From: Acidobacteriota bacterium
Lineage (GTDB): Bacteria > Acidobacteriota > Vicinamibacteria > Vicinamibacterales > UBA823
Reading direction: 5' to 3'
NCBI GenBank assembly: GCA_002730525.1
Contig: PCAK01000007.1
Location: 1,409 to 65,408 of the forward strand
DNA: 64,000 nt
Shown here: piece after piece, positions 20,359 through 53,015 of the stretch
How positions within the stretch are numbered: position 1 is the stretch's first letter
Layout: each line of letters begins with the position of its first letter
Position numbers and translations under genes: made by a program
The notes under the pieces: model-generated
What the model was told of the DNA's origin: nothing
The model's database searches: none
What the model saw: only the letters and a program-made list of their open reading frames with translations

Positions 20359-21366
20359 CTAGGGCTGGAGCCGCTTCATCTTCTCCAGCAGCGTCGTTCG
20401 CTTCAACTGGAGCAGGTCGGCGGCCCGGCGCTTGTTGCCGTCGGCGCGCCTGAGCGCCTGCCGGATCAGTTCACGTTCGACGTCGTGGACGTAGTTCTCG
20501 AAGTCGATCCCGTCGTCGGGAAACGCGACTCGCACGGCCAGTCCTGGTTCGGCGGCCGCCTGGATCTCCGGCGGCAGGTCGGCGACATCGATCTGGGTAC
20601 GGCCCTGGCTGAACGCGAGCGTACGCTCGACGACGTTCTCGAGTTGCCGGATGTTGCCGGGCCAGGCGTAGGCCATCAATTGCCGCATCGCTTCCTGCGA
20701 CACGCCGACGTTGGGCCGCGGCGGGACGAGGTCGCGTCCGAGGCGCTCCAAGAAGTGCTGCGTCAAGATCGGGATGTCTTCCCGCCGATCCCGTAGCGGC
20801 GGCAACGGAATCGGAATGACGTTGAGTCGATAGAACAAGTCCTCCCGGAACGTGCCTTCCGCCACGAGCTGGGTCAGGTTGGAGTTGGTCGCCGCGATCA
20901 CCCGGACATCGACTCGTCGCTGCTCGAGTGAGCCGACGCGCTGCACCTCGCCCGCCTCCAGCGTGCGCAGCAGTTTCGCCTGCACGAGCGCCGGCAGTTC
21001 GCCGACCTCATCGAGAAACAGGGTGCCGCCGTGGGCCTGCTCGAACATGCCGACTTTGTTCTCGGTGGCGCCGGTGAATGCACCCCGGACGTGGCCGAAG
21101 AGCTCGCTCTCGAACAGCGTCTCGACTACGGCCGAACAGTTGATCGTGATGAACTTGCGGACTCGGCGAGGACCCTCGTGGTGGAGCGCGCGCGCGACCA
21201 GCTCCTTCCCGGTGCCGGTCTCGCCGGTAATCAACGCGGTCCGCACGTGGGGCGCGAGCCGGCGAATCAAGTCGAACAGCTCCTGCATCCCCGGCCCGCG
21301 GCCGATCATGCCGCAGAACTCGGTGCGCTGCGCGAGGTCGCCCTCGATCGCCAGGCGTTCCCTCAA
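20359..21366 (-). CDS. Sigma-54-dependent activator module (AAA+ domain plus Fis-type HTH), downstream part of a split NtrC-family response regulator
   Basis: GETGTGKELVARALH (Walker A), GAFTGA (sigma-54 contact loop), DEVGELP (Walker B), and C-terminal NKRRAADLLQLKRTTLLEKMKRL (HTH). It begins directly after an in-frame TAG. The only immediate start is TTG, with no obvious RBS. Confidence 0.8.
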   Translation of the reverse strand: MRERLAIEGDLAQRTEFCGMIGRGPGMQELFDLIRRLAPHVRTALITGETGTGKELVARALHHEGPRRVRKFITINCSAVVETLFESELFGHVRGAFTGATENKVGMFEQAHGGTLFLDEVGELPALVQAKLLRTLEAGEVQRVGSLEQRRVDVRVIAATNSNLTQLVAEGTFREDLFYRLNVIPIPLPPLRDRREDIPILTQHFLERLGRDLVPPRPNVGVSQEAMRQLMAYAWPGNIRQLENVVERTLAFSQGRTQIDVADLPPEIQAAAEPGLAVRVAFPDDGIDFENYVHDVERELIRQALRRADGNKRRAADLLQLKRTTLLEKMKRLQP

Positions 21367-21762
21367 CTACGACACGTCACGCTTGATGTCGGCCAACAGG
21401 TCCCGCAGGCGATGCAGGTCGAACGGCTTGGTCAGGTAGTCTCGCGCGCCGAGCTTGACAGCTTCGACGGCCGAATCGATCGTCGCCTGCCCCGACATGA
21501 TGACGACGCGGCAGGACTGGTCGGTCGCCCGGATCGCCTTGATGACCTCGAGGCCGCCGACGTCGGGCATCATGAGGTCGACGAGGACGAGATCGACACG
21601 CGCCTCCGCCATCCGCTCCATCGCCTGACGGCCGCCGGTGCAGGTGAGTACGTCGAAGCCCTCGCGGCGCGCCACGCGGCCGAGCATCGCCAGCACGGAG
21701 GGATCGTCGTCCACGACGAGGACGAGAGGCCGGTCGGGCGCCGGCTGAGGATCCGACGTCAT
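21367..21762 (-). CDS. Response-regulator receiver domain, upstream part of the split NtrC-family regulator
   Basis: ATG 21762: MTSDPQPAPDRPLVLVVDDDPSVLAML...DLVLVDLMMPDVGG...KPFDLHRL. Ends at TAG 21367..21369, in frame with the AAA+ module. Confidence 0.75.
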   Translation of the reverse strand: MTSDPQPAPDRPLVLVVDDDPSVLAMLGRVARREGFDVLTCTGGRQAMERMAEARVDLVLVDLMMPDVGGLEVIKAIRATDQSCRVVIMSGQATIDSAVEAVKLGARDYLTKPFDLHRLRDLLADIKRDVS

Positions 21763-22035: not shown

Positions 22036-23418
22036 GTGCCGATCACTGCCCTCCCGCCGACCGCGGAAGACCTCGCTCCACTGCCGCCAGAGCCGGACGA
22101 CGCGTCGCTGACGCGTGAGCTGACGCTGCTCGACGCAACGCTGCTCAACGCCGGCGTCATGCAGGCAGCCACCCTGTTCATCGTCCCGGGAATCGTGTTC
22201 GCCAACACCGGCACCGCGTGGCTGGCGGCGCTGGCCTGGATCAGCGCCGGAGCCCTCACCTGGTGCGGCGCCGCTGCGTTTGCCGAACTCGGCGCGCGAT
22301 ATCCGCGCGCCGGTGGGCCGCTCGTCTTCTTCGAACGGGCGTACTCGCCGTTCTGGGGATTCGCATTCGGGTGGACGCTGGTCACGGTGATCCAGCCGGC
22401 ATCGATCGCCGCCGTCGCGGTGGCCTGCGTGACCTACCTCGAGGCCCTCCTCGCGCTGAACGCGACGCAAACGACGGGTAGCGCGGCTCTCCTCATCATG
22501 GCCGTGACGGCTGGGCACATCGCCGGATTTCGCCGGAGTGCCACGGCCCAGAACGTGCTGACGAGCGCCAAGATCGCGCTGTTGACCGTCGTCGCGGCGA
22601 GCTGTTTCTGGTTCGGCGGCGATGGTGCCGGGGCGTTCGGGGCCTTCGTGCCGGCCGCGCCGCTGACCCGGACGACCGCCGGATTCGGCGCGGCCGTGGC
22701 GGCGGCGCTCTGGGCCTTCAGCGGCTGGACCAGCGTGACGTTCGTCGGCGGCGAACTTCGCGAGCCAGCCGCCACGCTCCCGCGGGCGATGACCTACTCG
22801 GTAGTCGGCGTCACGGCACTGACCTTGCTCGTGACCTTGGGCTTTCTCTGGGCCCTGCCGACGTCTGGCCCGGCCGATCCCGACCGGCTTGCGCTCGATG
22901 CCGCCGGCCACGCGCTCGGCACTCTCGGTGAGCGGCTCGTCGCAATGGCGGTCGTCGTGTCGTGTCTCGCCGCAATCAGTGGCCTGGTGTTCTCGGGAAG
23001 CCGCATCATCTTCGCGATGGCACGACGCGGGTGGTTCCCTCCCCACGCTGGCGCGACGAGCGGGGGGCGGGTTCCCCGCAACGCGATGCTGTACCTCGGC
23101 GGCTGGGCGAGCGTGCTCACCTTCACCGGCCGCTATGACGAGCTGTTCACGTACGCCGTGGTAGCGGTCTGGCTCTTCGCGATGCTCGGCGGGCTGGCCG
23201 TCATCGTCGTTCGGCACCGACACCCGAACGACACGCGCCCGTACGAAGTGCCGGGCTATCCCTACGTGCCGGCGGTCTTCGGTGTCGCAAGCTGGGCGCT
23301 GATGCTGCAGACGCTGTGGACGAGTCCGGTGCAGGCCCTCATCGGTGCCATCCTCGTCCTCGCCGGCCTGCCGGTGTACTGGTACTTTGGGAAGCGAGCC
23401 GAGGGGAATCGTGCCTAG
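22036..23418 (+). CDS. APC-superfamily amino acid permease
   Basis: 460 aa, ~12 TM. AFAELGARYPRAGGPLVFFERAYSPFWGFAFGW is typical of APC transporters. GTG start. Confidence 0.8.
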   Translation: MPITALPPTAEDLAPLPPEPDDASLTRELTLLDATLLNAGVMQAATLFIVPGIVFANTGTAWLAALAWISAGALTWCGAAAFAELGARYPRAGGPLVFFERAYSPFWGFAFGWTLVTVIQPASIAAVAVACVTYLEALLALNATQTTGSAALLIMAVTAGHIAGFRRSATAQNVLTSAKIALLTVVAASCFWFGGDGAGAFGAFVPAAPLTRTTAGFGAAVAAALWAFSGWTSVTFVGGELREPAATLPRAMTYSVVGVTALTLLVTLGFLWALPTSGPADPDRLALDAAGHALGTLGERLVAMAVVVSCLAAISGLVFSGSRIIFAMARRGWFPPHAGATSGGRVPRNAMLYLGGWASVLTFTGRYDELFTYAVVAVWLFAMLGGLAVIVVRHRHPNDTRPYEVPGYPYVPAVFGVASWALMLQTLWTSPVQALIGAILVLAGLPVYWYFGKRAEGNRA

Positions 23419-23442: not shown

Positions 23443-23490
23443 CTGCGGCTCGTCCCGGCAGGGCTAAAGCCCTGCCCTACGCGCCACAGC
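23443..23490. repeat. REP-like hairpin element between convergent genes
   Basis: ggacttcgcctgcggctcgtcccggcagggctaaagccctgccctacg contains a perfect 8-bp stem (ggcagggc/gccctgcc) with a taaa loop. It is homologous to 9983..10030. Confidence 0.6.
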
Positions 23491-23491
23491 A

Positions 23492-24133
23492 TCACGACTT
23501 ACGGGCGTGCTCGTCGAACTGGACGCTCCAGTGCGCACCACTGCAGAAGGGCTTGTTGGTGCTCGCACCGCACCGGCAGAGCTCGAAATGTTCTTGCGAG
23601 GCGCCTTCACCCCACTCGACCTCCTGCAGATCGGCGCCGCCGATGATCGCGTAGGGCCCGTTCGGCGCGATGAAGATGACCGGATCACGCGTCTGGTCAC
23701 GGTGCTCGACACCATCGACCGCATAACTCAACGCGCCCGACGGGCAGCTCTTCACAGTCTCGATGATGTCGTTGGCCGATGCGCCTTGGGGATCGACGAA
23801 CGGCTCTTGCCGGGTCCTGAACACCGACGGCAGCCCATCGGTGCAACGCCCGGCGTGGGCGCAGATCCCGCGATTGTCGTGGACGGTGACGCCGTCGCCC
23901 TCGAAGGTCTTGCGCTTGTCCGGGGTCCGGCCCGGGGCCTTGTCACCGGTGAAGCCGTTGGTCTGGTCATGGCCGTCGCAGAACGGTTTCTTCTTCGACC
24001 CGCCACAGCGACAGAGCGCGACGGTACCGTCGGTCTCGTAGACCGTCCCGTCCGAGTAGTTCTTCAGCATCTTGCAGTTCGTGACCAGCAGCGGGCCGTT
24101 CATGGCGGCCACGATCGTCGGCTTGTTGCTCAT
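23492..24133 (-). CDS. CDGSH iron-sulfur protein: two CDGSH-type domains flanking a divergent 4Fe-4S mono-cluster domain
   Basis: CRCGGSKKKPFCDGH and CRCGASTNKPFCSGAH are CDGSH-type motifs. The central GICAHAGRCTDGLPSVF...VKSCPSGALSY is ferredoxin-like. The ATG at 24133 overlaps the upstream stop (ATGA). Confidence 0.8.
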   Translation of the reverse strand: MSNKPTIVAAMNGPLLVTNCKMLKNYSDGTVYETDGTVALCRCGGSKKKPFCDGHDQTNGFTGDKAPGRTPDKRKTFEGDGVTVHDNRGICAHAGRCTDGLPSVFRTRQEPFVDPQGASANDIIETVKSCPSGALSYAVDGVEHRDQTRDPVIFIAPNGPYAIIGGADLQEVEWGEGASQEHFELCRCGASTNKPFCSGAHWSVQFDEHARKS

Positions 24134-25851
24134 CGTCCGCCCTCCGTCGCTTCTGCGCTCGTCTCGGCCCAGCCGGTCCACCCCGGCCCACGCAGCGCAC
24201 GTCCCGGTGTCGCGCCCGTATGGTCGCCGTCCTGAAGCACCGGCGTACCGTTGACCCAGACGTGCACCATGCCCACGGCGTACTGATGCGGCTCCTCGTA
24301 CGTCGCGCGATCCTGGATGGTCGCCGGGTCGAAGGCGACGACGTCGGCGAAGAAACCCGGCGCGAGCTGGCCGCGATCGCGGATGCGAAGGTTGGTGGCT
24401 GGAAGCGAGGTCAGCTTCCGCACCGCTTCCTCCAAGGGAATGACCCGCTCATCGCGCACGTATCGACCGAGTAGCCGCGCGAAGTTCCCGTAGGCGCGCG
24501 GATGCGTCGACGTGTTGAGAAAGACGCCCTCGGTCGCATACGACCCGGCGTCCGAGCAGAAGCTGACCCAGGGCAGCGCGATCTGCCGGGCCACGTTCTC
24601 TTCGGACATCAGGAAGTAGACGACCTGCACCCGGCTGCCGTCCTCGATCACCAGGTCCATGGCGGTATCGGCGACCGACGTGCCGCGCGCCTCCGCGACC
24701 TCCGCCAGAGTCTGACCGATGTAACCGCGCAACGCCGGATTCTTGAACCCGACGAGCAACGTACCCTCGGCGCCCGCAGCGAGCAGCAGGTTTTCCCAGG
24801 CGTTCGTCGGCGTCGTCATCTCCTGCCGAACCCGATCTCGGATAGCCGGGTCGCCCAGCCGCTCGGCCCAGTCGTCGTAGCCGCCTTCCTGCACCCAGGG
24901 TGGCATCCCGGCGTCGAGGCCGGTCGAGCCCGCCGTGTAGTTGTACATGTTGGCAGTGATCTGGAGTCCCTCCGCGCGGGCCGCCTCGACCCGTTCGATC
25001 ACGGCATCGAGCTTGTCCCAGTTCGATTGACCGCCCGCCTTCAGGTGGTAGATCTCGGCCCGGATGCCGGACTCCCTGGAGATGGTCAGGAGCTCGTCGA
25101 CCGATTCCAGCAGCGCGTTGCCTTCGCTGCGCATGTGCGAGATGTATAGGCCGTCGTACTCGGCCGCGACCTTCGACAACTCGATGAGCTCGTCGGTCTG
25201 TGCATAGAACGCCGGCGCGTAGATCAACGACGAGCCGATACCGACCGCACCCTCCTCCATCGCCTGCCGAACGAGCGCCCGCATCCGGTCCAGCTCGTCG
25301 TCGGTGGGTGGGCGGTCTTCGTATCCGATCTCATGCACTCGCAGCGTCGTCGCGCCGACGAACGAGGCAACGTTGGGTGAGATCCCCTTCGTTTCCAGGT
25401 GCTCCAGGTACTCGCCGAGGGTCGTCCACTCGACGTCGAACATGATGTCACCCTGGCTGGTAACCTCGAGGTTCTTCATCTGGTCGGTCAGCGGACCGCC
25501 CGACGTGCCCTCACCGAAGACCTCGAGCGTCACGCCCTGCCGGATGTCGCCCTGCGACCGGCCATCCTCGATCAGGGCGTCGCCGGCCCAGCTCAGCATG
25601 TTGACAAAACCCGGGGCGATCGCCAGCCCCGCGGCGTCGACCTCCGTCACGCCGCGCGCGTTCCCCAGGTCGCCGACCGCGGCAATCCGGTCGCCGTCGA
25701 TCGCCAAGTCGCCGACGAAACTGGGCGCGCCGGAGCCGTCGATGATTGTGCCGTTGCGGATGATCAGATCGTGCTCGGGTGCCGACGCACAGCCCGCCAG
25801 GCTGGCGACGACCAACGTGGCAACGGCGGCGAACCGGATTGGGTGGGTCAT
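24130..25851 (-). CDS. N-acyl-D-amino-acid deacylase (D-aminoacylase) family amidohydrolase, lipoprotein
   Basis: 573 aa. Lipobox MTHPIRFAAVATLVVASLAGC. IRNGTIIDGSGAP...GDLAIDGDRIAAVGDL...APGFVNMLSW is typical of the family. Confidence 0.8.
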   Translation of the reverse strand: MTHPIRFAAVATLVVASLAGCASAPEHDLIIRNGTIIDGSGAPSFVGDLAIDGDRIAAVGDLGNARGVTEVDAAGLAIAPGFVNMLSWAGDALIEDGRSQGDIRQGVTLEVFGEGTSGGPLTDQMKNLEVTSQGDIMFDVEWTTLGEYLEHLETKGISPNVASFVGATTLRVHEIGYEDRPPTDDELDRMRALVRQAMEEGAVGIGSSLIYAPAFYAQTDELIELSKVAAEYDGLYISHMRSEGNALLESVDELLTISRESGIRAEIYHLKAGGQSNWDKLDAVIERVEAARAEGLQITANMYNYTAGSTGLDAGMPPWVQEGGYDDWAERLGDPAIRDRVRQEMTTPTNAWENLLLAAGAEGTLLVGFKNPALRGYIGQTLAEVAEARGTSVADTAMDLVIEDGSRVQVVYFLMSEENVARQIALPWVSFCSDAGSYATEGVFLNTSTHPRAYGNFARLLGRYVRDERVIPLEEAVRKLTSLPATNLRIRDRGQLAPGFFADVVAFDPATIQDRATYEEPHQYAVGMVHVWVNGTPVLQDGDHTGATPGRALRGPGWTGWAETSAEATEGGR

Positions 25852-25867
25852 GAATCCTCGTATCCAC

Positions 25868-26896
25868 TCAGCTGTCCTTCAACTTCAGCAGCTTGACGGC
25901 GTTGGCCCAATAGATCTTGTCCCGGTCAGTATCGCTCAGATCCAGCTCATCGATAATCTTGATCGTCTCGCGGATGTACATCGGCCCCTTCTCTGGATCG
26001 AACGGCGCATCGGATGCGAACAAGACGTTGTCGACACCGAAGAACTCGAGGCCGCAGACGGTGGCCGGGCGCCCGCCGAAGACCGCCGTGTCGGCGTAGA
26101 ACATTTTGAAGTAGTCGATCGGCCGCTTCTTCAATCGTTGCAGCACGGCGCCCAGATCCTCATCGGACGTTCGGCTGCCCAGCTGATCCCAGCCGTAACC
26201 GACGCGGCCCTCGAAGTAGGGCACCATGCCGCCCAGATGATGGGCAATGATCTTCAGCGACGGGTGATCATCGAACACCCCGTCGAAGACGATCCGCGAC
26301 ATCGCGACGCTCGTCTCGTAGGGCCAGCCGAAGGTCCACCAGATCTCGTATTTCGAGCTCGACTCCTGGAGGTAGTCGGCGAAGCTCGCGCCACGCGACG
26401 GATGGAGCCAGATCGGCAGGTCGTGCTCGGCCATCGCCGCGAAGAGCGGCCGAAACTCGGGCGCGGTCAGCGGCTTGCCGAGCACGTTGGTGAACACCTG
26501 GACGCCGCAGGCTCCCAAATCGCGGATCGCGCGGTGGGTCTCGGTCACGAGCCCCTCCGGAGAGTTCATCGGGAGCGACGCGACGAAGCTCGGGAAACGA
26601 TCGGGGTACTGGCGGACCAGATCGGCCATGCCGTCGTTGGCCGCCTCGGCGAGCTGGGTCGAAACGTCGGGGCCGCCCAGATGCTCGAGCGGCGGGGAGG
26701 CGAGCGAGAGGATCTGCCGGTACTCGGCGCCGAATCGATCCATCACCCGGAATCGCTCGTCGAGATTCGCCAGCATCGGAATGCCGCGCACCCGCTTGCC
26801 TATATCCTTATGATCGCCCGCCACGCGCTGCATCAGCTCGTGGAACGGCTTCGGGAAGATGTGGTTGAAGATGTCGATTTTCTGCATGATGTCCAA
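25868..26896 (-). CDS. Amidohydrolase-2 family enzyme (ACMSD/LigI/LigJ-like)
   Basis: 342 aa. IDIFNHIFP at the N-terminus, IIAHHLGG, and ASDAPFD near the C-terminus. Confidence 0.8.
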   Translation of the reverse strand: MDIMQKIDIFNHIFPKPFHELMQRVAGDHKDIGKRVRGIPMLANLDERFRVMDRFGAEYRQILSLASPPLEHLGGPDVSTQLAEAANDGMADLVRQYPDRFPSFVASLPMNSPEGLVTETHRAIRDLGACGVQVFTNVLGKPLTAPEFRPLFAAMAEHDLPIWLHPSRGASFADYLQESSSKYEIWWTFGWPYETSVAMSRIVFDGVFDDHPSLKIIAHHLGGMVPYFEGRVGYGWDQLGSRTSDEDLGAVLQRLKKRPIDYFKMFYADTAVFGGRPATVCGLEFFGVDNVLFASDAPFDPEKGPMYIRETIKIIDELDLSDTDRDKIYWANAVKLLKLKDS

Positions 26897-26933
26897 GGGG
26901 TCCGAGGCCAGGATATTCTATGGGCCGGCTCCG

Positions 26934-27569
26934 CTACTTCCAACCGTAGACGTCGAGCGTCGTCCGCCCCTGACGCAGCGCATCGGCGATCGACGCTTCT
27001 TTCTTGTCTCGTGTCCGCGCCGCGGCCAGGACGTCGCCCACCGAATCGCGGGCGAGCACGACCACGCCGTCAGCGTCCCCAACCACGAGGTCGCCGGGCG
27101 CTACCGTGACATCTCCGACGACGACGGGTTCGTTGATGCTGCCGGGGGCATCGGCCACCTTGGCCGTGCCGCGAATCGCCCGGCCGCGGGCGAACACCGG
27201 GAAGCCCGACGCGGCGAGTTCGTCGCCGTCGCGCACGCAGCCGTCGATGACCAGTCCGCCCAGGCCGCCGGCGATTGCCGCGGTCGTCATGATCCCGCCC
27301 CAGTACCCGAACTCGTACGCGCCCGCGACGGTGGCCACCAGCACGTCGCCGGGTTTCGCCTGGGCCATCGCCCGGTGCAGCCAGAGGTTGTCGCCCGGGG
27401 CACCGGCGACCGTGCAGGCGGGGCCGTACAGGCGCATCGACGTGGCCACCGGTTTGATCGCCGCCGGTAGCGCGCCGACCTGGCTCGCGGCCTCGTGGAG
27501 CGTGGCCGAGGAAAAGGCGGCGGCGGCGGTGACCAGCGCGGCGTCGAGAACGCCGTCGCGATCGGTCAC
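26934..27569 (-). CDS. RraA-fold protein (HMG/CHA aldolase / oxaloacetate decarboxylase family), paralogue 1
   Basis: 211 aa. GYWGGIMTTAAIAGGLGGLVIDGCVRD...FPVFARG. The GTG start overlaps the upstream stop (GTGA). Confidence 0.8.
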   Translation of the reverse strand: MTDRDGVLDAALVTAAAAFSSATLHEAASQVGALPAAIKPVATSMRLYGPACTVAGAPGDNLWLHRAMAQAKPGDVLVATVAGAYEFGYWGGIMTTAAIAGGLGGLVIDGCVRDGDELAASGFPVFARGRAIRGTAKVADAPGSINEPVVVGDVTVAPGDLVVGDADGVVVLARDSVGDVLAAARTRDKKEASIADALRQGRTTLDVYGWK

Positions 27570-28225
27570 GATGTGGAATCCTTCTTCCGCTGCAGCTCGA
27601 AGTACTTGTGCTGGACGCGGGCTTCGTCGAGGCGCATACCGCCCTCGAACGCTGCCCGGATCCGATTCTCGGCGGCGTCGATCTCCTGGGCCAACGCGAT
27701 GACCTCGTCCTCGCGCGACCGCGGCACGGCGACGACGCCGTCGGCATCGCCGAGCAGGGCATCCCCGGGCTCCACGGTGGCGCCGCCGATCGAGACCGGC
27801 ACACTCATCGCGTCGAGCTGCACCCGGTCCTTGCCGGTGCGCACCGACCAGCCGGCGCTGAAGATCGGGTAGGCCAACTCCAGGCTCAGCGCGGTATCGC
27901 GGCAGTGTCCGTCGATGACAGTCCCACCGACCCGGCGCCGATGCGCCACGAAAGTGAGGATATCGCCCCAGACCGTCATGTCGGGCCGGCCGCCGTTGTC
28001 GATGACGACCACCTCGCCTTCAGGGACATCGTCGATGTAGTCGCCGACCGTGCCCGGCTCGCCGGATACCGGCACCGTCCGCATGGTGAACGCCCGCCCG
28101 CAGAGCCGGAAGGTCGGCGCCAGCGGCTTGATGCCGAGGCACTGACCCGCGATGCCGAGGCGGTCGAGCGCGTCGCTGACCGTCGTGGCCGACAATGTCT
28201 TCAACGTCACCAACACCGGATCCAT
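27566..28225 (-). CDS. RraA-fold protein (LigK-length), paralogue 2
   Basis: ATG 28225: MDPVLVTLKTLSATTVSDALDRLG...VWGDILTFVAHRRRVGGTVIDGHCRD...YPIFSAG. 219 aa with a C-terminal helical extension. The upstream part of ORF 27566..28639 is off-frame junk. Confidence 0.8.
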   Translation of the reverse strand: MDPVLVTLKTLSATTVSDALDRLGIAGQCLGIKPLAPTFRLCGRAFTMRTVPVSGEPGTVGDYIDDVPEGEVVVIDNGGRPDMTVWGDILTFVAHRRRVGGTVIDGHCRDTALSLELAYPIFSAGWSVRTGKDRVQLDAMSVPVSIGGATVEPGDALLGDADGVVAVPRSREDEVIALAQEIDAAENRIRAAFEGGMRLDEARVQHKYFELQRKKDSTS

Positions 28226-28236
28226 CGTGGTCGCCC

Positions 28237-28911
28237 TCACTCGTCCGACGAGTCTCGCTCCGCCATCGACTCGTAGGTACGGCCCATGACCTGGCTGACC
28301 GGCGTGCCGTTGCGGACCGCCGTGGTCATCATCGCTTCGAGGGCGGCAATCGACTCGGCGAGATCCAGCACCTCGTCGCTCCGCGCCGCGTCGATGAAGA
28401 CCACGCCGCTGCCGTCGGCGATGACGAGATCGCCCGGCTTCACGTCGACGCCGCCGACGACGATCGGCTCGTTCCAGGCGTGTTCGGCCACCCGCCCCCT
28501 CGCCGTGACCGGCACGACATCGCGGGCGAAGACCGGATACCCGAGCGCACGGCTGTCGTCGACATCGCGCACCGAGCCGTCGACGATCGTACCGGCGACG
28601 CCGCGCACACAGGCGGCCGTCGACAGCAGCCCACCCCATCCGGCTGCATCATCGCGGCTCCGATGCTCGACGACGATGACATTGGCGGCCGTCGCCGCTT
28701 CGATGGCGGCGCTGCACAGGTGACGCGTCGCCGGCGCGTCACCTGCCGGGCCGAGCTTGACCGGCACGACGCGGCCGGCGATCCGCCGCGCGGCCGAGAC
28801 CTGCCGGATGCCGAGAGCCGTTCCCGGCAGACCGAGTCGATCCAGCGCGTCGGAGACCGTGCAGGTGTCCAGCGCCTGGAGCCGCACCAAAGCAGCGTCG
28901 TCTGACGACAT
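28237..28911 (-). CDS. RraA-fold protein (LigK-length), paralogue 3
   Basis: 224 aa. LDTCTVSDALDRLG...GWGGLLSTAACVRGVAGTIVDGSVRD...YPVFARD. Confidence 0.8.
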   Translation of the reverse strand: MSSDDAALVRLQALDTCTVSDALDRLGLPGTALGIRQVSAARRIAGRVVPVKLGPAGDAPATRHLCSAAIEAATAANVIVVEHRSRDDAAGWGGLLSTAACVRGVAGTIVDGSVRDVDDSRALGYPVFARDVVPVTARGRVAEHAWNEPIVVGGVDVKPGDLVIADGSGVVFIDAARSDEVLDLAESIAALEAMMTTAVRNGTPVSQVMGRTYESMAERDSSDE

Positions 28912-29066
28912 GATCAGGTGTTCTCCTCCCGAATCCCGGCCGGCGGGCCGCCTTGCAGACCGGCCGATCCAACTGTCAGTCGGTCATTGTCTCTTGACCG
29001 CCGGGGATATTCACTCAAATTGTGCCGCGGCACGGAGCCGGGCGCTCGGCAGTATCATCTAGCACC

Positions 29067-30506
29067 ATGTCCGAATCAAGCCTCGGCCAGCTCCCGGAGT
29101 CGAGCGTGGGCGCCGCCGATCGCAAGACGATCGTGGGAATCGCTGGCGCGGTTGCCGCAACCGTCGTCGTCCTTCTGCTCCCGACGCCCGCCGACCTGCC
29201 ACCCGAGGGCCAGCGCCTCGGCGCCGTGTTCCTGGCCGCAATCATTCTCTGGGCCACCGAGGCGATCCCGATCGCCGTGACCGCGCTGCTCGTCATCGTG
29301 CTGCAGCCGATCTTCGAGGTCGCCGAGCTCGACGCCGCGTTCAACGCATTCGTCAGCCCGGTATTTTTCTTCGTGCTCGCGATGTTCTGCATCGCGGCGT
29401 CGGTCACCAACGCCGGCCTCGACCGGCGGTTCGCCTACTGGCTGCTCGCCCGCGCCGGCACCGATAGCCGCCGGGTGATTGCCGCGCTCATCATCGGCAC
29501 GGCGGCCACGTCGGTCATGATCTCCGACGTGCCGGCCTGCGCCATCTTCATGAGCATCGGCCTGGGCGTGATGTCGCGGTTGAACCTCGAGCCCGGCAAG
29601 TCGTCGATCGGCAAGGCGATCATGATAGGCGTGCCGATCGGCTCGTTGATCGGCGGGGTCACGACGCCCGCCGGCAGCTCAGTCAACATCATCGGCCTGC
29701 ACTTCATCCAGGAGTTTGGCAACGTGACCGTCACGTTCGTCGAGTGGATGGCGATCGGTCTACCGATGGCGATTGGTCTCGTGCCGATTGCGTGCTGGGC
29801 GGTTCTCAAGAGTTATCCGCCGGAAATCGCGACGATCGGTGATGCCGGCGAGATCGAGCGCGAGCGGGCGGCGCTGGGCACGATGTCAGCCGCCGAGCGG
29901 AAGGCGGTCACGCTGCTGTCGATCATGATGGTGCTCTGGATCGCCGGCAGTTGGATTCCGTTCCTCGACGTCCTCACCGTCGGCCTGGGCGGTGCCATCG
30001 TCATGTTTCTGCCGGGCATGCGGCTGCTGACCTGGAAACAGGCCGAGCGTGCGATCGGCTGGGACACCTTGCTGATGATCGGCGGCGTGACCTCGCTCGG
30101 CACCGCGTCGGTCGAGGCCGGCCTGGCCGGCTGGCTCGTCGACCTGGCCCTGGGAGGCGTGGCCAACTGGCACATCGTCTGGGTCCTGCTGGCGATCAGC
30201 GCGTTCACGGTCGTGATCCATCTGGCGCTGCCGATCGGGCCGGTCGTCAACGCGGTCGTCATTCCGCCGATCGCGCTCCTGGCCGTCGGCGCCGGAGTCC
30301 ACCCGGCGCTCTACGCACTGCCAGTCGCGTTCACCGCCTCGTGCGCGTTCCTGCTGCCGCTGGACGCCGTGGCGCTGCTGACCTACTCGCGCGGCTACTA
30401 CCGGATGCACGAGATGCTGGCGCCGGGCGCGTTGATCAGCGCGGCCTGGGTCGTCTGGATGACGGTCGTCATGCTCGTCGTCGGCGGGCTCCTCGGATTC
30501 GTCTAG
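29067..30506 (+). CDS. DASS/SLC13 family anion:sodium symporter
   Basis: ATG 29067 (MSESSLGQLP...). AIILWATEAIPIAVTALL and the repeated hairpin-region motifs (GGVTTPAGSSVN) are typical of DASS. About 479 aa. Confidence 0.8.
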   Translation: MSESSLGQLPESSVGAADRKTIVGIAGAVAATVVVLLLPTPADLPPEGQRLGAVFLAAIILWATEAIPIAVTALLVIVLQPIFEVAELDAAFNAFVSPVFFFVLAMFCIAASVTNAGLDRRFAYWLLARAGTDSRRVIAALIIGTAATSVMISDVPACAIFMSIGLGVMSRLNLEPGKSSIGKAIMIGVPIGSLIGGVTTPAGSSVNIIGLHFIQEFGNVTVTFVEWMAIGLPMAIGLVPIACWAVLKSYPPEIATIGDAGEIERERAALGTMSAAERKAVTLLSIMMVLWIAGSWIPFLDVLTVGLGGAIVMFLPGMRLLTWKQAERAIGWDTLLMIGGVTSLGTASVEAGLAGWLVDLALGGVANWHIVWVLLAISAFTVVIHLALPIGPVVNAVVIPPIALLAVGAGVHPALYALPVAFTASCAFLLPLDAVALLTYSRGYYRMHEMLAPGALISAAWVVWMTVVMLVVGGLLGFV

Positions 30507-30520
30507 CTGGAGGCGCACTC

Positions 30521-31480
30521 ATGAAATCACTTCTGGTCACGTCCGCGGTGTCGCTCGTGCTCGTCCTCAGCGTGCCGGCGTTCGGCCAAGCACAGGACGC
30601 TCCCCTTCCCGGCATCACCCTGAGCCTCGACGAGCTCCGGGCGCAGATGTTCCACGTCAGCGCCGGTCGGCGGCTCAAGCCGGAGACTTGGCCCGACGGC
30701 AACCGGGTCGCGGTGGCATTGAGCTTCGACGTCGACAACGCCACGGCGACGCTCTCGCGCGGCAACCTGAACTCCGAGGTGATCTCGCGCGGTGAGTACG
30801 GCGCGGTCGACGGCCTGCCCCGAATCCTCCGGATGCTGGAGCGGCAGGATGTCCCAGCCTCGTTCTTCATCCCGGCCATCAGTCACCTGCTGCACCCCAC
30901 CATGGTCGAGCAGATCCTCGCCGCGGGCGTCCACGAGATTGGCGTCCATGGCTGGATTCACGAATTGCTGCCGGTGCTCGATGACGCCGAGGAGGAGCAA
31001 CGACTGCTCGTCCAGGCGATCGACGCACTCACCGAGGCCGTGGGCAAGCGCCCGGTCGGCTACCGCGCGCCGTCGTGGCAGTTCAGCCAGCACACGATGC
31101 AGCAGGTGAAGGAGGCCGGCTTCCTCTACGACAGCTCGCTCATGGCGAGTGACGACGCTTACGAGATTCTGATCGACGGTGAGCCGAGCGGCGTCGTCGA
31201 GCTGCCGATCGAACGGATCCTCGACGACTTCCCCTACTTCGGCGGCAATACGAACGGCTCGTCGCCGGTGCCCGAGATCATGGTCAAGGTCTTCGAGAGC
31301 GAGTTCGACGTGGCGTGGGAGGAAGGCGGCCTGTTCGTCCTGACGATGCACCCGCACATCATGGGCCACCGCTCGCGCGTCGCCGTGCTCGAGGGTCTGA
31401 TCCGTCATATGAAGCTCAAGGGCGGCGTCTGGTTCGCCACACACGAAGAGGTCGCGCGCTACGTCCTCGAAGCGGGCTAG
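30521..31480 (+). CDS. Secreted polysaccharide deacetylase (NodB-homology / PuuE-like) family protein
   Basis: ATG 30521 with GGAGG RBS. Signal peptide MKSLLVTSAVSLVLVLSVPAFGQAQ. ALSFDVDN...FFIPA...HEIGVHGWIHE...YRAPSW are NodB-type motifs. 319 aa. Confidence 0.8.
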   Translation: MKSLLVTSAVSLVLVLSVPAFGQAQDAPLPGITLSLDELRAQMFHVSAGRRLKPETWPDGNRVAVALSFDVDNATATLSRGNLNSEVISRGEYGAVDGLPRILRMLERQDVPASFFIPAISHLLHPTMVEQILAAGVHEIGVHGWIHELLPVLDDAEEEQRLLVQAIDALTEAVGKRPVGYRAPSWQFSQHTMQQVKEAGFLYDSSLMASDDAYEILIDGEPSGVVELPIERILDDFPYFGGNTNGSSPVPEIMVKVFESEFDVAWEEGGLFVLTMHPHIMGHRSRVAVLEGLIRHMKLKGGVWFATHEEVARYVLEAG

Positions 31481-50575: not shown

Positions 50576-50589
50576 CGTTCCACCGACTC

Positions 50590-50626
50590 GGCGCATCCGA
50601 TTCCCGATGCGCCGGGTCGTTTTGTC
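50590..50626 (+). terminator. Candidate intrinsic terminator after the aminotransferase pair
   Basis: ggcgcatc-cgattccc-gatgcgcc (8-bp stem, 50590..50613) is followed by gggtcgttttgtctc, a partial T-run. Confidence 0.4.
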
Positions 50627-50689
50627 TCTGCTCGCGCTACCCGAGCCGGCCCGCAATCGGGCCGTCGGCTTACCCCCTGCCGGATCCCC

Positions 50690-52030
50690 ATGCCCGATCC
50701 GCCCACGACCGAGCTCAAGCGCTCGATGACCCTGGTCCCGGCGACCGCCCTGGTCGTCGGCACGATCATCGGCGCGTCGATCTTCGTGCAGCCGTCGGAG
50801 ATCACCGCGCTGGTGCCCTCGGTCGGCGGCGTGGCGGCTATCTGGCTGGTCGCGGGCATCCTGACCTTCTTCGGGGCGCTGGTCTCCGCGGAGCTGGCTT
50901 CGGCCTTTCCCCGTACCGGCGGCGTCTACGTCTTCCTGAACGAGACCTACTCCCCGGTGCTCGGCTTCCTGTGGGGCTGGGCGATGTTCTGGAGCATGCA
51001 CTCCGGCATCCTCGCCGCCATCGCCGTCGTCTTCGCCCGCTACGTCGCCTTCTTCGTCCCGCTGAGCCCAGTCGGCGTCCAGTTGGTGGCGGCCGGCGCC
51101 ATTCTCGTGCTCTCGGCGATCAACTACCGCGGCATCGAGCACGGCAGCCGGCTGCAGACCGCCTTCACAGTCGGCAAGGTCGCGGCGATCGCGCTGATGA
51201 TCGCCGTGGGTCTGGTGCTCGCGCCTGGAGAAGCGGCGAGCACGACGTCGGTCTCGGCACCGGCGGCCGCAGTAGCGTCCACCCCGATCACGTGGACCGC
51301 CATCGTGCGGGCGCTCATCGCGGGACTCTTCGCGTTCGGCGGGTGGCACATGGTGACCTACGCCGCGGGTGAGACGGTCGACCCGACTCGGACGATCCCG
51401 CGTGCACTGCTTGGCGGCACGGTCATCGTGACGATCTGCTATATCGCGCTGAACGCCGTCTACATGTACGTTCTGCCGATGGACGTGGTCATCTCGTCGT
51501 CACGCGTCGCGGCCGACGCCGCCGATGCGTTGCTCGGGAGCGGCGGCGCCGGATTGATGTCGGGTCTGGTCATCTTCTCGACGTTCGGCGCCCTGAACGG
51601 AATCGTCTTGGCGGGCCCGCGCGTCTACTACTCGATGGCGCAGGACGGCCTGCTGTTCAACTGGGCCGGGCGGGCTCACCCCACGTTCCGGACCCCGCAC
51701 CTGGCCATCGTGCTGCAGGGCGTCTGGGCCTCGGTGCTCGTGTTCACCGGCACGTACAGCCAGCTGTTCTCGCGGGTCATCTACGTCGAGTGGGTCTTCT
51801 TCGGCCTGATGGCACTCGGCCTGTTCATCCTGCGCCGGCGGCCCGACTACACGCCGGCCTACCGAGTACGCGGAGCCGCCGTCATCGCCGGCGTGTTCGC
51901 GCTGTCGTCCGCCATCATCCTGCTCAACCGTTTCCTCACTGAACCGGTCGAGGCTGTCATCGGCCTCGGCATCGTCTTGCTCGGCGTGCCCGTCTACTAC
52001 TTCTGGCTCGCCCGCCCGAAAGGAGCGTGA
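50690..52030 (+). CDS. APC-superfamily amino acid permease
   Basis: 446 aa. GTIIGASIFVQP...SAELASAFPRTGGVYVFLNETYSPVLGFLWGW is typical APC. Confidence 0.8.
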   Translation: MPDPPTTELKRSMTLVPATALVVGTIIGASIFVQPSEITALVPSVGGVAAIWLVAGILTFFGALVSAELASAFPRTGGVYVFLNETYSPVLGFLWGWAMFWSMHSGILAAIAVVFARYVAFFVPLSPVGVQLVAAGAILVLSAINYRGIEHGSRLQTAFTVGKVAAIALMIAVGLVLAPGEAASTTSVSAPAAAVASTPITWTAIVRALIAGLFAFGGWHMVTYAAGETVDPTRTIPRALLGGTVIVTICYIALNAVYMYVLPMDVVISSSRVAADAADALLGSGGAGLMSGLVIFSTFGALNGIVLAGPRVYYSMAQDGLLFNWAGRAHPTFRTPHLAIVLQGVWASVLVFTGTYSQLFSRVIYVEWVFFGLMALGLFILRRRPDYTPAYRVRGAAVIAGVFALSSAIILLNRFLTEPVEAVIGLGIVLLGVPVYYFWLARPKGA

Positions 52031-52037
52031 ACCGTCC

Positions 52038-53015
52038 TTGGCGATCATCGACTTTCATAACCACTTCTACACGCCTGGCTACCTCGCGTCGGTTCGCAAC
52101 GGCGAGACCGCGCTGAAGCACACGACCGACGATGACGGGAACCCGGTGCTGTACTACCCGGGCGACTACAACGTCGTTGTGCCGGGCCACCGCGACGCCG
52201 ACTTCCGCGACCAGGTGATGGCGGAACACGGGATCGACATGCAGGTCCTGACGTTTACGTCACCGGGAACGCATGTTGAGAGCCCCGCCGTCGCCGTGAG
52301 GCTGGCCAGCCAGGTTAACGACGACCTCGCGGCGATCAAAGCCTCGAAGCCTCGGTTCACCGCGCTGGCGACGCTTCCGCTGAACGATCCGCAGGCCTCG
52401 GTCGCCGAACTCGAGCGCGCCATGACGCAGCTCGGGTTCAAGGGGGTCATGCTGTTCAGCAACGTCAATGGCACGGCGTTGAGCGATGAACGGTACTGGC
52501 CGCTCTACGAGAAGGCGAACGAACTGGGTGCGGTCTTCTACATTCACCCGATCCATCCGGTGGGTGTCGAGGCGATGACCGACTACTGGCTGATGCCGCT
52601 GCTCGGCTTCGTCTTCGACACAACGCTGGCCGCGGCGAAGATCGTCTTCAGCGGCGTGGCCGAGCGGTTTCCCCGCATCACCTGGGTGCTGGCGCATCTG
52701 GGCGGGACGGTCCCCTACCTCGCCGAGCGGCTCGACCGGGGGTTTCACGCGTTCGCCGATTGCCGCCAGCACATCGACCGGCCGCCGAGCGACTATCTCA
52801 AGCGCTTCTACTTCGACACCGTGAATTTCGATCCCAAGGCCCTTCAGCTGGCGATCGACTTCGCCGGCGTCGGTCATGTGATCGCCGGAAGCGACTATCC
52901 ACACAAGATCGGCAGCCTGCGGCAGATGCTCGACAGCATCGGCGGCTTGCCGATCTCGGATCAGGACAAAGCCGACATCCTGGGCAACAACACGGCAACT
53001 TTGCTCGGACTCTGA
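52038..53015 (+). CDS. Amidohydrolase-2 family enzyme (ACMSD-like decarboxylase/hydrolase)
   Basis: 325 aa, TTG start. IIDFHNHFY, YIHPIHP, LAHLGG and GSDYPH motifs are present. Confidence 0.8.
   Translation: MAIIDFHNHFYTPGYLASVRNGETALKHTTDDDGNPVLYYPGDYNVVVPGHRDADFRDQVMAEHGIDMQVLTFTSPGTHVESPAVAVRLASQVNDDLAAIKASKPRFTALATLPLNDPQASVAELERAMTQLGFKGVMLFSNVNGTALSDERYWPLYEKANELGAVFYIHPIHPVGVEAMTDYWLMPLLGFVFDTTLAAAKIVFSGVAERFPRITWVLAHLGGTVPYLAERLDRGFHAFADCRQHIDRPPSDYLKRFYFDTVNFDPKALQLAIDFAGVGHVIAGSDYPHKIGSLRQMLDSIGGLPISDQDKADILGNNTATLLGL

Follow-up and report, generated by a model that had tools for sequence, protein, structure and literature searches.

A widely conserved cassette of three RraA-fold genes, a putative pyruvate-yielding lower pathway, in a marine Vicinamibacterales locus

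The window analyzed here is a stretch of 64,000 nucleotides from an Acidobacteriota bacterium of the Vicinamibacterales, in which six open reading frames follow one another on the minus strand exactly where a sequence-only reading had placed them. Their order is RraA3, RraA2, RraA1, amidohydrolase-2, a D-aminoacylase-like lipoprotein, and a CDGSH protein (Table 1), and the protein families proposed for these genes and for the divergently transcribed neighbors were upheld by Pfam.

Table 1 Features of the RraA locus (positions within the 64,000-nucleotide window)
Feature	Position	Strand	Description
DASS di/tricarboxylate-type symporter	29067..30506	+	Divergent; Pfam Na_sulph_symp, CitMHS
Secreted polysaccharide-deacetylase/PuuE-like hydrolase	30521..31480	+	Pfam PF01522
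RraA3	28237..28911	-	224 aa; first cassette gene; RraA-fold enzyme, PSPTO_3204/3K4I clade
RraA2	27566..28225	-	219 aa; second cassette gene; RraA-fold enzyme, motif D-X20-R-D
RraA1	26934..27569	-	211 aa; third cassette gene; GTG start overlaps RraA2 stop
Amidohydrolase-2	25868..26887	-	339 aa from ATG (342 aa from TTG at 26896); LigW/ACMSD-clade
D-aminoacylase-family lipoprotein	24130..25851	-	573 aa; Pfam Amidohydro_3/1; non-canonical metal site
CDGSH-Fer4_19-CDGSH iron-sulfur protein	23492..24133	-	213 aa; last gene; Pfam PF09360 (zf-CDGSH) twice and PF06902
GC-rich hairpin, GGCAGGGC-TTTA-GCCCTGCC	23457..23476	-	Between the convergent CDGSH and APC permease genes; read directly
APC-family amino-acid permease	22036..23418	+	Convergent; Pfam AA_permease_2

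The junctions were read directly and agree with the earlier description: the TGA stop of RraA3 is followed by 11 nt and the ATG of RraA2, RraA2 and RraA1 overlap by GTGA, 16 nt separate the amidohydrolase-2 stop from the next ATG, and the lipoprotein and CDGSH genes overlap by 4 nt, ATGA. The 37-nt gap described downstream of RraA1 stands if amidohydrolase-2 starts at the TTG at 26896, but becomes 46 nt with the ATG at 26887 chosen by gene callers; a weak sigma-70-like site lies within it. A ribosome-binding site, GGGAGGAG, is found 11 nt upstream of the RraA3 ATG. At the other end the hairpin likely marks the end of the operon, and a terminator scan made no call there (no T-run). The six genes are presumably co-transcribed.

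The Pfam RraA-like domain is present in all three paralogues (E 1.6e-34 to 1.6e-40; PF03737 with E 2.6e-35 for RraA3, and E 1.6e-34 for RraA2), and all three, rather than the two initially singled out, are of LigK length with a C-terminal helix. The proposed likeness to LigK was borne out for RraA1, which is 40% identical to the P. putida HMG/CHA aldolase 3NOJ (E 3.7e-35), scores 173.1 against NCBIfam NF006731 (cut-off, 179), and lies well below the TIGRFAM LigK cut-off. With residue roles taken from PMC5065237, RraA1 keeps every LigK substrate residue, and N71, H75, R123, D124, G144, T145, K147, R195, and E199 are invariant among 34 family members. RraA1 shares fold and length with LigK/GalC/ProA (3NOJ) of the protocatechuate 4,5-cleavage and gallate pathways, as well as R123, D124, N71, H75, T145, K147, R195, and E199, and the expected products, pyruvate plus pyruvate or oxaloacetate, are alike. 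Unlike in those systems, there are no ligABCIUJ genes nearby in the window, and RraA1 is accompanied by two paralogues with altered pockets (G102, R147, and I195 in RraA3; G75 and I195 in RraA2). Judged by its sequence, RraA1 is a candidate LigK-like HMG/CHA aldolase/oxaloacetate decarboxylase.

RraA3 and RraA2 belong to the clade of P. syringae PSPTO_3204 (3K4I), a structural-genomics RraA-like protein without assigned function. This is the nearest solved relative of RraA2 (E 2.1e-44; 42.5% identity), with which it has the D-X20-R-D motif in common. For RraA3, whose motif is G-X20-R-D-X2-E/D, 3K4I is both the top PDB sequence match (E 4.5e-28) and the best structural match of the AF2 model (pLDDT 87; Foldseek TM 0.80, versus 0.74 for 3NOJ). 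Across 82 RraA3 family members, G102, H75, R123, D124, R147, and E199 (3NOJ numbering) are invariant, and position 127 is E or D throughout. Among 53 members of the RraA2 family, D102, G75, R123, and D124 are invariant, and K147 and E199 are found in 52, the remaining member having a gap and none an alternative residue. PSPTO_3204, which is of the RraA2 type, was crystallized alone, with three chains, whereas the family is met here as RraA3 and RraA2 side by side, in some cases fused. Our literature search found no experiment or paper assigning a reaction to RraA3 or RraA2.

R123-D124 and E199 are common to all three families, each of which has one of two metal-site motifs. Because the catalytic residues are retained, the three paralogues are enzymes and not regulators of RNase E. 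Indeed, the notion that they are RraA-type regulators of RNase E or the degradosome has next to no probability. What speaks for it is the Pfam family shared with E. coli RraA, whose core alpha-beta-beta-alpha fold is also common to the paralogues, and some database names. However, E. coli RraA has ∼160 aa and no C-terminal helix, whereas the paralogues are ∼50 to 60 residues longer with an aldolase-type C-terminal helix, reach 41 to 56 bits against an RraA equivalog cut-off of 136, have invariant catalytic motifs, and lie in a consistently catabolic genomic context.

Three RraA genes in a row had been considered unusual, but they form a common cassette. When RraA3 served as seed, 25 of 83 genome loci had all three genes in the order RraA3-RraA2-RraA1, and 26 more had RraA3-RraA2. 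With RraA2 as seed, RraA3 was directly upstream in 56 of 65 metagenome loci. Estimated gaps are mostly −8 to +11 nt. The trio crosses phyla, being spread over at least six higher taxa (Acidobacteriota, Chloroflexota [SAR202/Dehalococcoidia], Alpha- and Betaproteobacteria, Actinomycetota, and Bacillota), with Streptosporangium roseum, Burkholderia cenocepacia, Ralstonia solanacearum, Polymorphobacter, and Aminobacter as cultured carriers. Plasmid pNL1 of Novosphingobium aromaticivorans holds the RraA3/RraA2 pair only, and on pSROS01 of S. roseum a LysR-linked operon consists of the trio alone. RraA3-type genes without RraA2 are found in 30 of the 83 loci and interleave with paired ones in a tree, which makes an obligate heteromer unlikely. 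The sequence-only reading had rightly asked whether the paralogues build a hetero-oligomer or catalyze sequential steps, and natural fusions in all three combinations are new evidence on this question. Several metagenomes, and also the fungus Paraphoma, encode RraA3-RraA2 as a single polypeptide; one of these fusions stands in for both genes in an otherwise identical operon (three samples), and RraA1-RraA3 and RraA2-RraA1 fusions were also found.

The genes downstream of the trio have other distributions. Amidohydrolase-2 matches Pfam PF04909 (Amidohydro_2; E 1.1e-38) and has no match in NCBIfam. A kinship with LigI and LigJ had been suggested, but the closest relatives are 3IJ6 (uncharacterized; E 2.8e-48) and the LigW/ACMSD decarboxylase clade (LigW, E 2e-34), LigJ reaching merely E 1e-12. 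This homology points to a LigW/ACMSD-clade metal hydrolase, decarboxylase, or hydratase. The gene is directly 3′ of RraA1 in 10 of 124 loci with the RraA3/RraA2 pair. It takes this place in Acidobacteriota and also in Rhodospirillales (loci L024, L041, L074, L099, and L100); elsewhere, at ∼70% identity, it is divergently paired with a LigY-like gene without any RraA gene. The N terminus of the lipoprotein carries a signal peptide and an LAGC lipobox. Its placement in the D-aminoacylase family holds as regards the match to PDB 1M7J (E 3.4e-74), but three canonical zinc ligands are missing (H68 replaced by L, H70 by W, and C97 deleted), with H220, H250, and D366 kept. The first five of these positions read alike in all five orthologues, and D366 is retained by three; of the other two, one is truncated before the site and one has an unreadable residue there. 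The CDGSH protein matches PDB 3TBM (E 1.2e-8).

The order from RraA3 to the aminoacylase-like gene recurs, alongside DASS, in five further marine acidobacterial lineages (L011 to L014 and L095; RraA3 67 to 79% identical or RraA2 88% identical to that of the window), so the locus is conserved in relatives and its arrangement is not due to chance. The six genes are, however, not the single conserved unit first supposed, the aminoacylase-like and CDGSH genes being narrower in distribution than the cassette. Among the loci examined, the former is confined to marine acidobacterial versions and the latter to the lineage of the window (L001 to L003 and L010). No CDGSH match lies 3′ of the aminoacylase-like gene in L012 to L014, three relatives with sequence extending past it; in L012 that place holds an MFS transporter and a 312-aa protein.

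These patterns bear on whether the locus is a mosaic, in which a self-contained RraA trio adjoins unrelated amidohydrolase-2, lipoprotein, and CDGSH genes on the same strand, possibly with an internal promoter. The restricted CDGSH and aminoacylase-like genes, the amidohydrolase-2 relatives in loci without RraA genes, the export of the lipoprotein as opposed to the cytoplasmic RraA proteins, and the sigma-70-like match in the 37- to 46-nt gap argue for it, and the three genes may be unrelated passengers. We nevertheless consider a mosaic rather doubtful, given that amidohydrolase-2 directly follows RraA1 in both Acidobacteriota and Rhodospirillales, that the later junctions are of 16 nt and a 4-nt overlap, and that five marine lineages hold the first five genes together.

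The divergent neighbors proved to belong to the families first named, as judged from Pfam and PDB matches. The DASS symporter scores 200.2 against TIGR00785 of NCBIfam (cut-off, 198.6) and is syntenic with the cassette in L011 to L014 and L095. The deacetylase-family protein has an N-terminal signal sequence, matches PDB 3RXZ (E 7.5e-49) and PuuE allantoinase (E 4e-22), and is syntenic in L011, L012, and L095. The APC permease adjoins the locus in L012 to L014, and an amino-acid permease is likewise found beside the cassette on a B. cenocepacia plasmid.

Elsewhere, the cassette usually lies 3′ of a LigB-type dioxygenase and a LigY-like C-C hydrolase, which matches LigY (5VN5) with E 1.8e-142; a second context comprises an aminotransferase and an alpha/beta hydrolase. 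Among 49 loci with the RraA3/RraA2 pair and at least 5 kb on either side, 35 have the LigY-like amidohydrolase, 29 the LigB-type dioxygenase, 25 RraA1, and merely 3 an aldehyde dehydrogenase. The first context recalls the LigZ-LigY-LigW route by which Sphingobium sp. SYK-6 handles the lignin biphenyl DDVA, where LigZ is a LigB-family dioxygenase, LigW is the nearest characterized enzyme to the amidohydrolase-2 of the window, and the LigY product requires hydration and aldol cleavage. This product, 4-carboxy-2-hydroxypenta-2,4-dienoate (CHPD), is the enol of 4-methylene-2-oxoglutarate. Its formation by LigY is described (PMC6874591), and PMC12673573 gives the CHPD hydratase of Sphingobium SYK-6 as unidentified. 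Unlike that route, the window has no LigB-type dioxygenase, LigY-like gene, or in-operon aminotransferase; the LigY-like gene, though, is retained in its nearest marine relatives. The position after a dioxygenase and a C-C hydrolase, and the pyruvate end product of the proposed route, are also those of the meta-cleavage lower pathway (MhpD/BphH hydratase, of FAH fold, and MhpE/BphI/DmpG aldolase). However, the proteins differ completely in fold, the RraA cassette would take the place of both enzymes, and it has no acetaldehyde dehydrogenase partner. FAH-type hydratases and DmpG-type aldolases are absent from both Pfam-annotated clusters, which leaves the RraA genes as the only candidates for those steps.

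Our main reading, tentatively held at a probability of roughly 0.45, is that the cassette is a pyruvate-yielding lower pathway, with RraA1 as HMG/CHA aldolase and RraA3/RraA2 as a coupled preceding step. The reactions, substrate, and oligomeric state that we infer are the following. The conserved core would consist of three RraA-fold, divalent-metal, pyruvate-enolate enzymes ending a catabolic route, in which RraA1 would yield pyruvate plus pyruvate or oxaloacetate. RraA3 and RraA2 would form a functionally coupled pair, probably physically associated (e.g., as stacked trimers), acting just ahead of RraA1 and most likely ketonizing and hydrating a 4-substituted 2-hydroxypenta-2,4-dienoate, such as CHPD to HMG; alternatively, they may cleave a related 4-hydroxy-2-oxo acid. 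To our knowledge, no RraA-fold protein has yet been shown to act as a hydratase or tautomerase. In other bacteria, the substrate would be fed in by the dioxygenase and C-C hydrolase or by the aminotransferase and alpha/beta hydrolase. By our reasoning, transamination of 4-methyleneglutamate would likewise give the keto form of CHPD, and this would explain both classes of context. In the window, the cassette shares its strand with the LigW/ACMSD-clade amidohydrolase and has two exported hydrolases and the DASS and APC transporters on its flanks. Since these are present and the feeder genes absent, its substrate in this marine Vicinamibacterales lineage is probably an imported open-chain polycarboxylate or amino-acid-derived oxo-acid.

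Two other readings of the trio were weighed against this coupled pathway. Each of the three paralogues could be its own homo-oligomeric class II pyruvate aldolase or beta-decarboxylase, independent of the others and acting on a different 4-hydroxy-2-oxo acid or oxaloacetate, with no complex and no new chemistry; a common pathway would then be the only reason for their linkage. Each has a complete catalytic set, RraA3 is often alone and RraA1 often missing, PSPTO_3204 crystallized by itself, and RraA-fold enzymes can combine aldolase and oxaloacetate decarboxylase activities (PMC5065237). Still, we hold this to be unlikely in view of the RraA3-RraA2 fusions in bacteria and a fungus, the very tight coupling of RraA2 to RraA3, and the absence of a recognizable hydratase from the inspected LigB/LigY-type clusters, although the hydrolase product needs hydration before aldol cleavage. 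More improbable still is a single obligate hetero-oligomeric enzyme with one activity, for example of the HMG/CHA aldolase type. RraA-fold proteins form trimers or dimers of trimers, and the constant gene order, in which stop and start codons overlap, the S. roseum operon, and the fusions of all three neighbor combinations would fit such an enzyme. But about half of the RraA3/RraA2 loci have no RraA1 nearby and a third of the RraA3 loci no RraA2, RraA1 is in some loci several kilobases away or on the opposite strand, an aminotransferase gene separates RraA2 from RraA1 in Ralstonia, and each subunit has the full catalytic set.

The cassette is not a local oddity but a widely conserved and hitherto uncharacterized unit. 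If the coupled-pathway reading is true, it would turn ring-cleavage or amino-acid-derived acids into pyruvate.

The RraA trio (RraA3-RraA2-RraA1), rather than the six-gene operon, is the most interesting element of the locus: a cassette with Rosetta-stone fusions that sits within the RraA-fold class II pyruvate aldolases of aromatic lower pathways. Aldolases of this fold are viewed as single homo-oligomeric enzymes that end the protocatechuate 4,5-cleavage and gallate pathways.

The locus belongs to a marine Vicinamibacterales MAG ("Acidobacteria UBA2161") that recurs across numerous ocean assemblies, those of Tara among them. The six minus-strand ORFs proposed in the sequence-only reading were confirmed in the sequence, as were the Pfam families of their products (three RraA-like, Amidohydro_2, Amidohydro_3/1, and two zf-CDGSH with Fer4_19) and of the divergent neighbours, a DASS symporter and a polysaccharide-deacetylase protein. 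The junctions were read as it had described them, with TGA, 11 nt and ATG between RraA3 and RraA2, a GTGA overlap between RraA2 and RraA1, 16 nt between the amidohydrolase-2 and aminoacylase-like genes, and an ATGA overlap between the latter and the CDGSH gene. The 37-nt gap between RraA1 and amidohydrolase-2 holds for a TTG start, whereas the ATG favoured by gene callers makes it 46 nt.

Features of the locus and of the surrounding window, with the closest structures of the RraA proteins
Feature	Position	Strand	Description
RraA3	28237-28911	minus	closest structure PSPTO_3204, 3K4I (uncharacterised), 31.6% identity, E 4.5e-28
RraA2	27566-28225	minus	closest structure PSPTO_3204, 3K4I (uncharacterised), 42.5% identity, E 2.1e-44
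RraA1	26934-27569	minus	closest structure P. putida HMG/CHA aldolase, 3NOJ, 40% identity, E 3.7e-35
Aminoacylase-like lipoprotein	24130-25851	minus	573 aa
CDGSH protein	23492-24133	minus	
DASS-RraA3 interval	28912-29066		155 nt
Sigma-70-like site	26915-26943	minus	TTGGAA-17-TAGAAT, in the RraA1/amidohydrolase-2 gap
GC-rich hairpin	23457-23476		between the CDGSH gene and the convergent APC permease gene
TAG stop	21367-21369	minus	within the NtrC-type response regulator
AAA+/HTH ORF	20359-21366		part of the NtrC-type response regulator
Second APC permease and Amidohydro_2 genes	about 50576-53012	plus	adjoining each other

Upstream of the operon no sigma-54 promoter (GG-N10-GC with flanks) was found, the best match having 6 mismatches, and control by the neighbouring NtrC-type regulator is therefore not supported. 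This sigma-54-dependent response regulator is divided by the TAG stop into a receiver ORF and an AAA+/HTH ORF; the related assembly GCA_030743195.1 has CAG at that position and an intact protein of 490 aa. An independent metagenome scaffold carries this TAG too, which makes it a real nonsense polymorphism. The sigma-70-like match is a possible internal promoter of the operon on weak evidence, with one such site observed and 0.5 expected by chance.

The three RraA proteins share 33-35% identity with one another and score 122.3, 119.7 and 139.3 bits against PF03737 (RraA-like/HMG-CHA aldolase superfamily), for which the gathering cut-off is 24.5. The AF2 model of RraA3 (pLDDT 87, pTM 0.84) shows the RraA fold, extended by a long helix at the C terminus, and its structural matches are 3K4I (TM 0.80), Yer010c (0.77) and 3NOJ (0.74). 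Structure prediction covers RraA3; RraA2 and RraA1 were placed by sequence alone.

To survey the catalytic residues, 82 RraA3, 53 RraA2 and 34 RraA1 homologues were aligned to 3NOJ, the numbering of which is used here, with the roles of LigK-type residues taken from PMC5065237. The essential R123-D124 pair is invariant in all homologues of the three families, and the metal-site Glu199 is the sole residue at its position throughout, with a gap in one RraA2 homologue. Two alternative metal-site motifs exist in this aldolase fold (PMC5065237). RraA2 homologues always carry Asp102, which gives the motif D-X20-R-D, and RraA3 homologues always carry Gly102, with Asp126 in 81 of the 82 and Glu or Asp at 127, which gives G-X20-R-D-X2-E/D, the motif also carried by RraA1 of the window. 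The wording of the two motifs reportedly comes from Mazurkewich et al. in 2014. With R123-D124 and a metal-site motif, the proteins group with catalytically competent RraA-fold class II pyruvate aldolases. The sequence-only reading had left room for pure RNase E regulators devoid of catalytic residues; these residues are kept in all three paralogues, which on that ground look like enzymes. The RNase E regulator (RraA) identity was rejected, given scores of 41.3, 44.5 and 56 where the NCBIfam equivalog requires 136, and it also fails on length (211-224 aa against about 160 aa).

Within the trio, only RraA1 looks like LigK. It keeps the LigK pocket residues N71, H75, G144, T145, K147 and R195, all invariant among the 34 homologues, and the LigK/GalC/ProA pocket (N71, H75, T145, K147, R195) occurs in RraA1 only, RraA3 having R147 and I195 and RraA2 having G75 and I195. 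RraA1 still falls just below the curated NCBIfam cut-off for the LigK/GalC/ProA equivalog (173.1 against 179 for NF006731; 159 against 304.5 for TIGR02798), and RraA2 and RraA3 reach 79-96 bits with these models.

The spread of the cassette was explored with an RraA3-seeded scan of one genome per species, which gave 80 loci whose ORFs were typed by phmmer against the window proteins; together with additional loci, 83 non-redundant loci were counted. RraA3-RraA2-RraA1 was observed in 25 of these, RraA3-RraA2 without RraA1 in 26, RraA3-RraA1 in 2 and RraA3 alone in 30, and the estimated intergenic distances in the cassette are mostly -8 to +11 nt. In the reciprocal, RraA2-seeded scan of metagenome contigs, 56 of the 65 loci with enough sequence have RraA3 as the gene directly upstream, and 3 more contain it in a different order. 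The trio is carried by Acidobacteriota, SAR202/Dehalococcoidia, Rhodospirillales, Sphingomonadales (Polymorphobacter), Hyphomicrobiales (Aminobacter), Burkholderiales (Paraburkholderia, B. cenocepacia, Ralstonia solanacearum), Actinomycetota (Streptosporangium) and Bacillota. In cultured Ralstonia, Burkholderia and Streptosporangium it is located on plasmids or megaplasmids, in R. solanacearum GMI1000 at about 1,565.9-1,569.3 kb of the megaplasmid; on S. roseum pSROS01 the trio alone forms a LysR-linked operon with overlapping stops and starts, and Novosphingobium pNL1 carries the RraA3/RraA2 pair. Conservation of the neighbourhood, on which the sequence-only reading had made its proposal depend, is thus borne out for the trio, a widespread conserved cassette of ancient paralogues that recurs in at least six bacterial phyla.

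A full-text literature search found no paper on the RraA pair or trio and none on a hydratase of 4-carboxy-2-hydroxypenta-2,4-dienoate (CHPD). As far as found, the cassette is uncharacterised, with two of its three members lacking an assigned function. On pNL1 (loci L175/L177) and on Croceicoccus naphthovorans p1 (L176), RefSeq names the RraA2-type gene 'diguanylate cyclase' and the RraA3-type gene 'dimethylmenaquinone methyltransferase', names that look wrong.

Natural fusions were sought by scanning 1.8 billion representative proteins with RraA2, followed by domain typing. The top of the scan holds three two-domain proteins of 436-454 aa. Bacterial fusions with RraA3 at the N terminus and RraA2 at the C terminus are represented by 2 and 4 members, which come from independent sources, and the fungus Paraphoma has two paralogous RraA3-RraA2 fusions, P0243 (KAH7084253.1) and P0395 (KAH7071958.1), of 453 and 455 aa, annotated merely as RraA/dimethylmenaquinone methyltransferase. 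One RraA3-RraA2 fusion was found in three samples, in an operon of LysR, the fusion, an RraA gene, an aminotransferase and an alpha/beta hydrolase; B. cenocepacia has the same operon with separate genes. In locus L186 an RraA1-RraA3 fusion precedes RraA2, which is encoded there as a gene of its own. The RraA2-RraA1 fusions P0282 and P0296 are N-terminally truncated fragments and hence weaker evidence. Read residue by residue, the fusions P0241 and P0243 keep the catalytic motifs in both halves. A metagenomic protein of 418 aa, P0353, joins a degenerate RraA3-like domain, in which Arg-Asp has become Arg-Gln and the WGG motif is lost, to an intact RraA1 domain, so that one half may have become non-catalytic.

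These fusions and the tight adjacency of the two genes suggest a functional coupling of RraA3 with RraA2 and make their physical association plausible. Against an association of the pair stand the 30 of 83 loci with RraA3 alone, which are interleaved with paired loci in the neighbour-joining tree. An obligate complex is further disfavoured by the lack of RraA1 in the vicinity of about half of the RraA3/RraA2 pairs and by the crystallisation of the RraA2-type PSPTO_3204 alone, and an obligate three-subunit enzyme is rated unlikely.

The genomic partners were counted in the 49 RraA3/RraA2 loci whose sequence extends for 5 kb or more on both sides. A LigY-like amidohydrolase lies near the pair in 35 and a LigB-family dioxygenase in 29, followed by RraA1 (25), a VanA-like Rieske oxygenase (13), RidA (8) and an aldehyde dehydrogenase (3). 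The LigY-like protein of locus L004 matches LigY (5VN5), which hydrolyses a C-C bond of the DDVA meta-cleavage product, with E 1.8e-142, against 7e-62 for LigJ. By annotation, the cassette of Polymorphobacter and Aminobacter lies amid ferulate, vanillate and 4-hydroxybenzoate genes, and on the PAH plasmids pNL1 and Croceicoccus p1 the RraA genes stand beside ring-hydroxylating dioxygenases. There (L175/L177 and L176) the RraA2- and RraA3-type genes come after a LigY-like amidohydrolase and RidA, themselves preceded by the ring-hydroxylating dioxygenase genes. A second class of context, found in Ralstonia, B. cenocepacia, L186 and L188, is free of dioxygenases and contains a PLP aminotransferase, an alpha/beta hydrolase and amino-acid transporters. 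Neither an FAH-type hydratase nor a DmpG-type aldolase was present in the two Pfam-annotated clusters.

The dienoate left by a dioxygenase and a C-C hydrolase needs ketonisation, hydration and aldol cleavage. CHPD is the enol of 4-methylene-2-oxoglutarate, and the metal and arginine site of the aldolases stabilises the pyruvate enolate. LigY yields CHPD (PMC6874591), whose hydratase is listed as unidentified in SYK-6 (PMC12673573), and HMG, the hydration product of CHPD, is a substrate of LigK (PMC5065237). Since 4-methylene-2-oxoglutarate would also form by transamination of 4-methyleneglutamate, one intermediate would explain both classes of context. The same metal/arginine site could in principle stabilise this enolate during conjugate addition of water. 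Given this chemistry and the shared site, the idea that fits best is that RraA3/RraA2 would prepare HMG or a related acid, which RraA1 would then cleave. A simpler rival is that the trio comprises three ordinary aldolases or decarboxylases. The most specific form of the preferred idea, in which an RraA3/RraA2 hetero-oligomer (e.g., two stacked trimers) ketonises and hydrates CHPD/4-methylene-2-oxoglutarate to HMG, a reaction new to the RraA fold, is unlikely in our estimate, at roughly one chance in five.

In the window the cassette stands in a different setting. No LigB-type or LigY-like ORF occurs in the whole 64 kb, and without a LigB-family ORF the window holds no protocatechuate 4,5-cleavage or gallate cluster. 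The closest marine acidobacterial relatives (L011-L014, L095) have a LigY-like gene between DASS and RraA3, where the window has only the short interval listed in the table; this is a presence/absence polymorphism of a presumed feeder enzyme. The exported deacetylase-family protein, the DASS symporter and the APC permease alongside lead us to read the cassette here as re-wired to imported substrates. Elsewhere in the window, the second Amidohydro_2 gene resembles the type just upstream of RraA3 in Rhodospirillales loci, and with its APC permease possibly forms a second uptake/hydrolase pair.

Amidohydrolase-2 is closest to 3IJ6 (uncharacterised), then to LigW and ACMSD. The sequence-only reading had noted that LigI and LigJ belong to the amidohydrolase-2 family; a LigI/LigJ identity was rejected, with E 2e-34 for LigW against 1e-12 for LigJ. 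The gene directly follows RraA1 in several Acidobacteriota and Rhodospirillales loci, is found at about 70% identity also in loci without RraA genes, and in L178 and L180 its homologue is divergently paired with a LigY-like gene. These contexts are heterogeneous and gave no answer as to its function.

The lipoprotein is homologous to D-aminoacylases, as had been proposed, without the canonical zinc site. Compared with 1M7J, L stands in place of H68 and W in place of H70, while C97 is deleted (the HxH region reads NMLSW and the Cys97 region FGE-G), and these losses are the same in all five orthologues. The window protein and all five orthologues retain H220 and H250; D366 is retained in the window and in three orthologues, and is missing or unreadable in the other two. 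With three canonical zinc ligands lost, a bona fide D-aminoacylase was rejected, and the protein is probably not a standard N-acyl-D-amino-acid deacylase. It is confined to marine acidobacterial loci. The last gene encodes a CDGSH protein by Pfam (two zf-CDGSH domains, E 4.1e-27), and its CDGSH-Fer4_19-CDGSH arrangement was found, among the loci compared, only in the lineage of the window. Its first motif, C-D-G-H, is one residue short of the canonical C-D-G-S/A-H; the second reads C-S-G-A-H.

That the trio so steadily accompanies LigB-type dioxygenases and LigY-like hydrolases suggests that aromatic and lignin-derived compounds have an alternative lower pathway, in which the missing CHPD hydratase is perhaps the function of the trio. 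If true, CHPD hydration by RraA3/RraA2 would fill this step of lignin-biphenyl (DDVA) catabolism, supply a hydrolytic branch of protocatechuate 4,5-cleavage and give a route for 4-methyleneglutamate-type amino acids; cultivable hosts allow this hypothesis to be tested directly. In the marine MAG the cassette has lost its tie to ring cleavage and is coupled to uptake systems instead, a hint that open-chain polycarboxylates are scavenged from dissolved organic matter.
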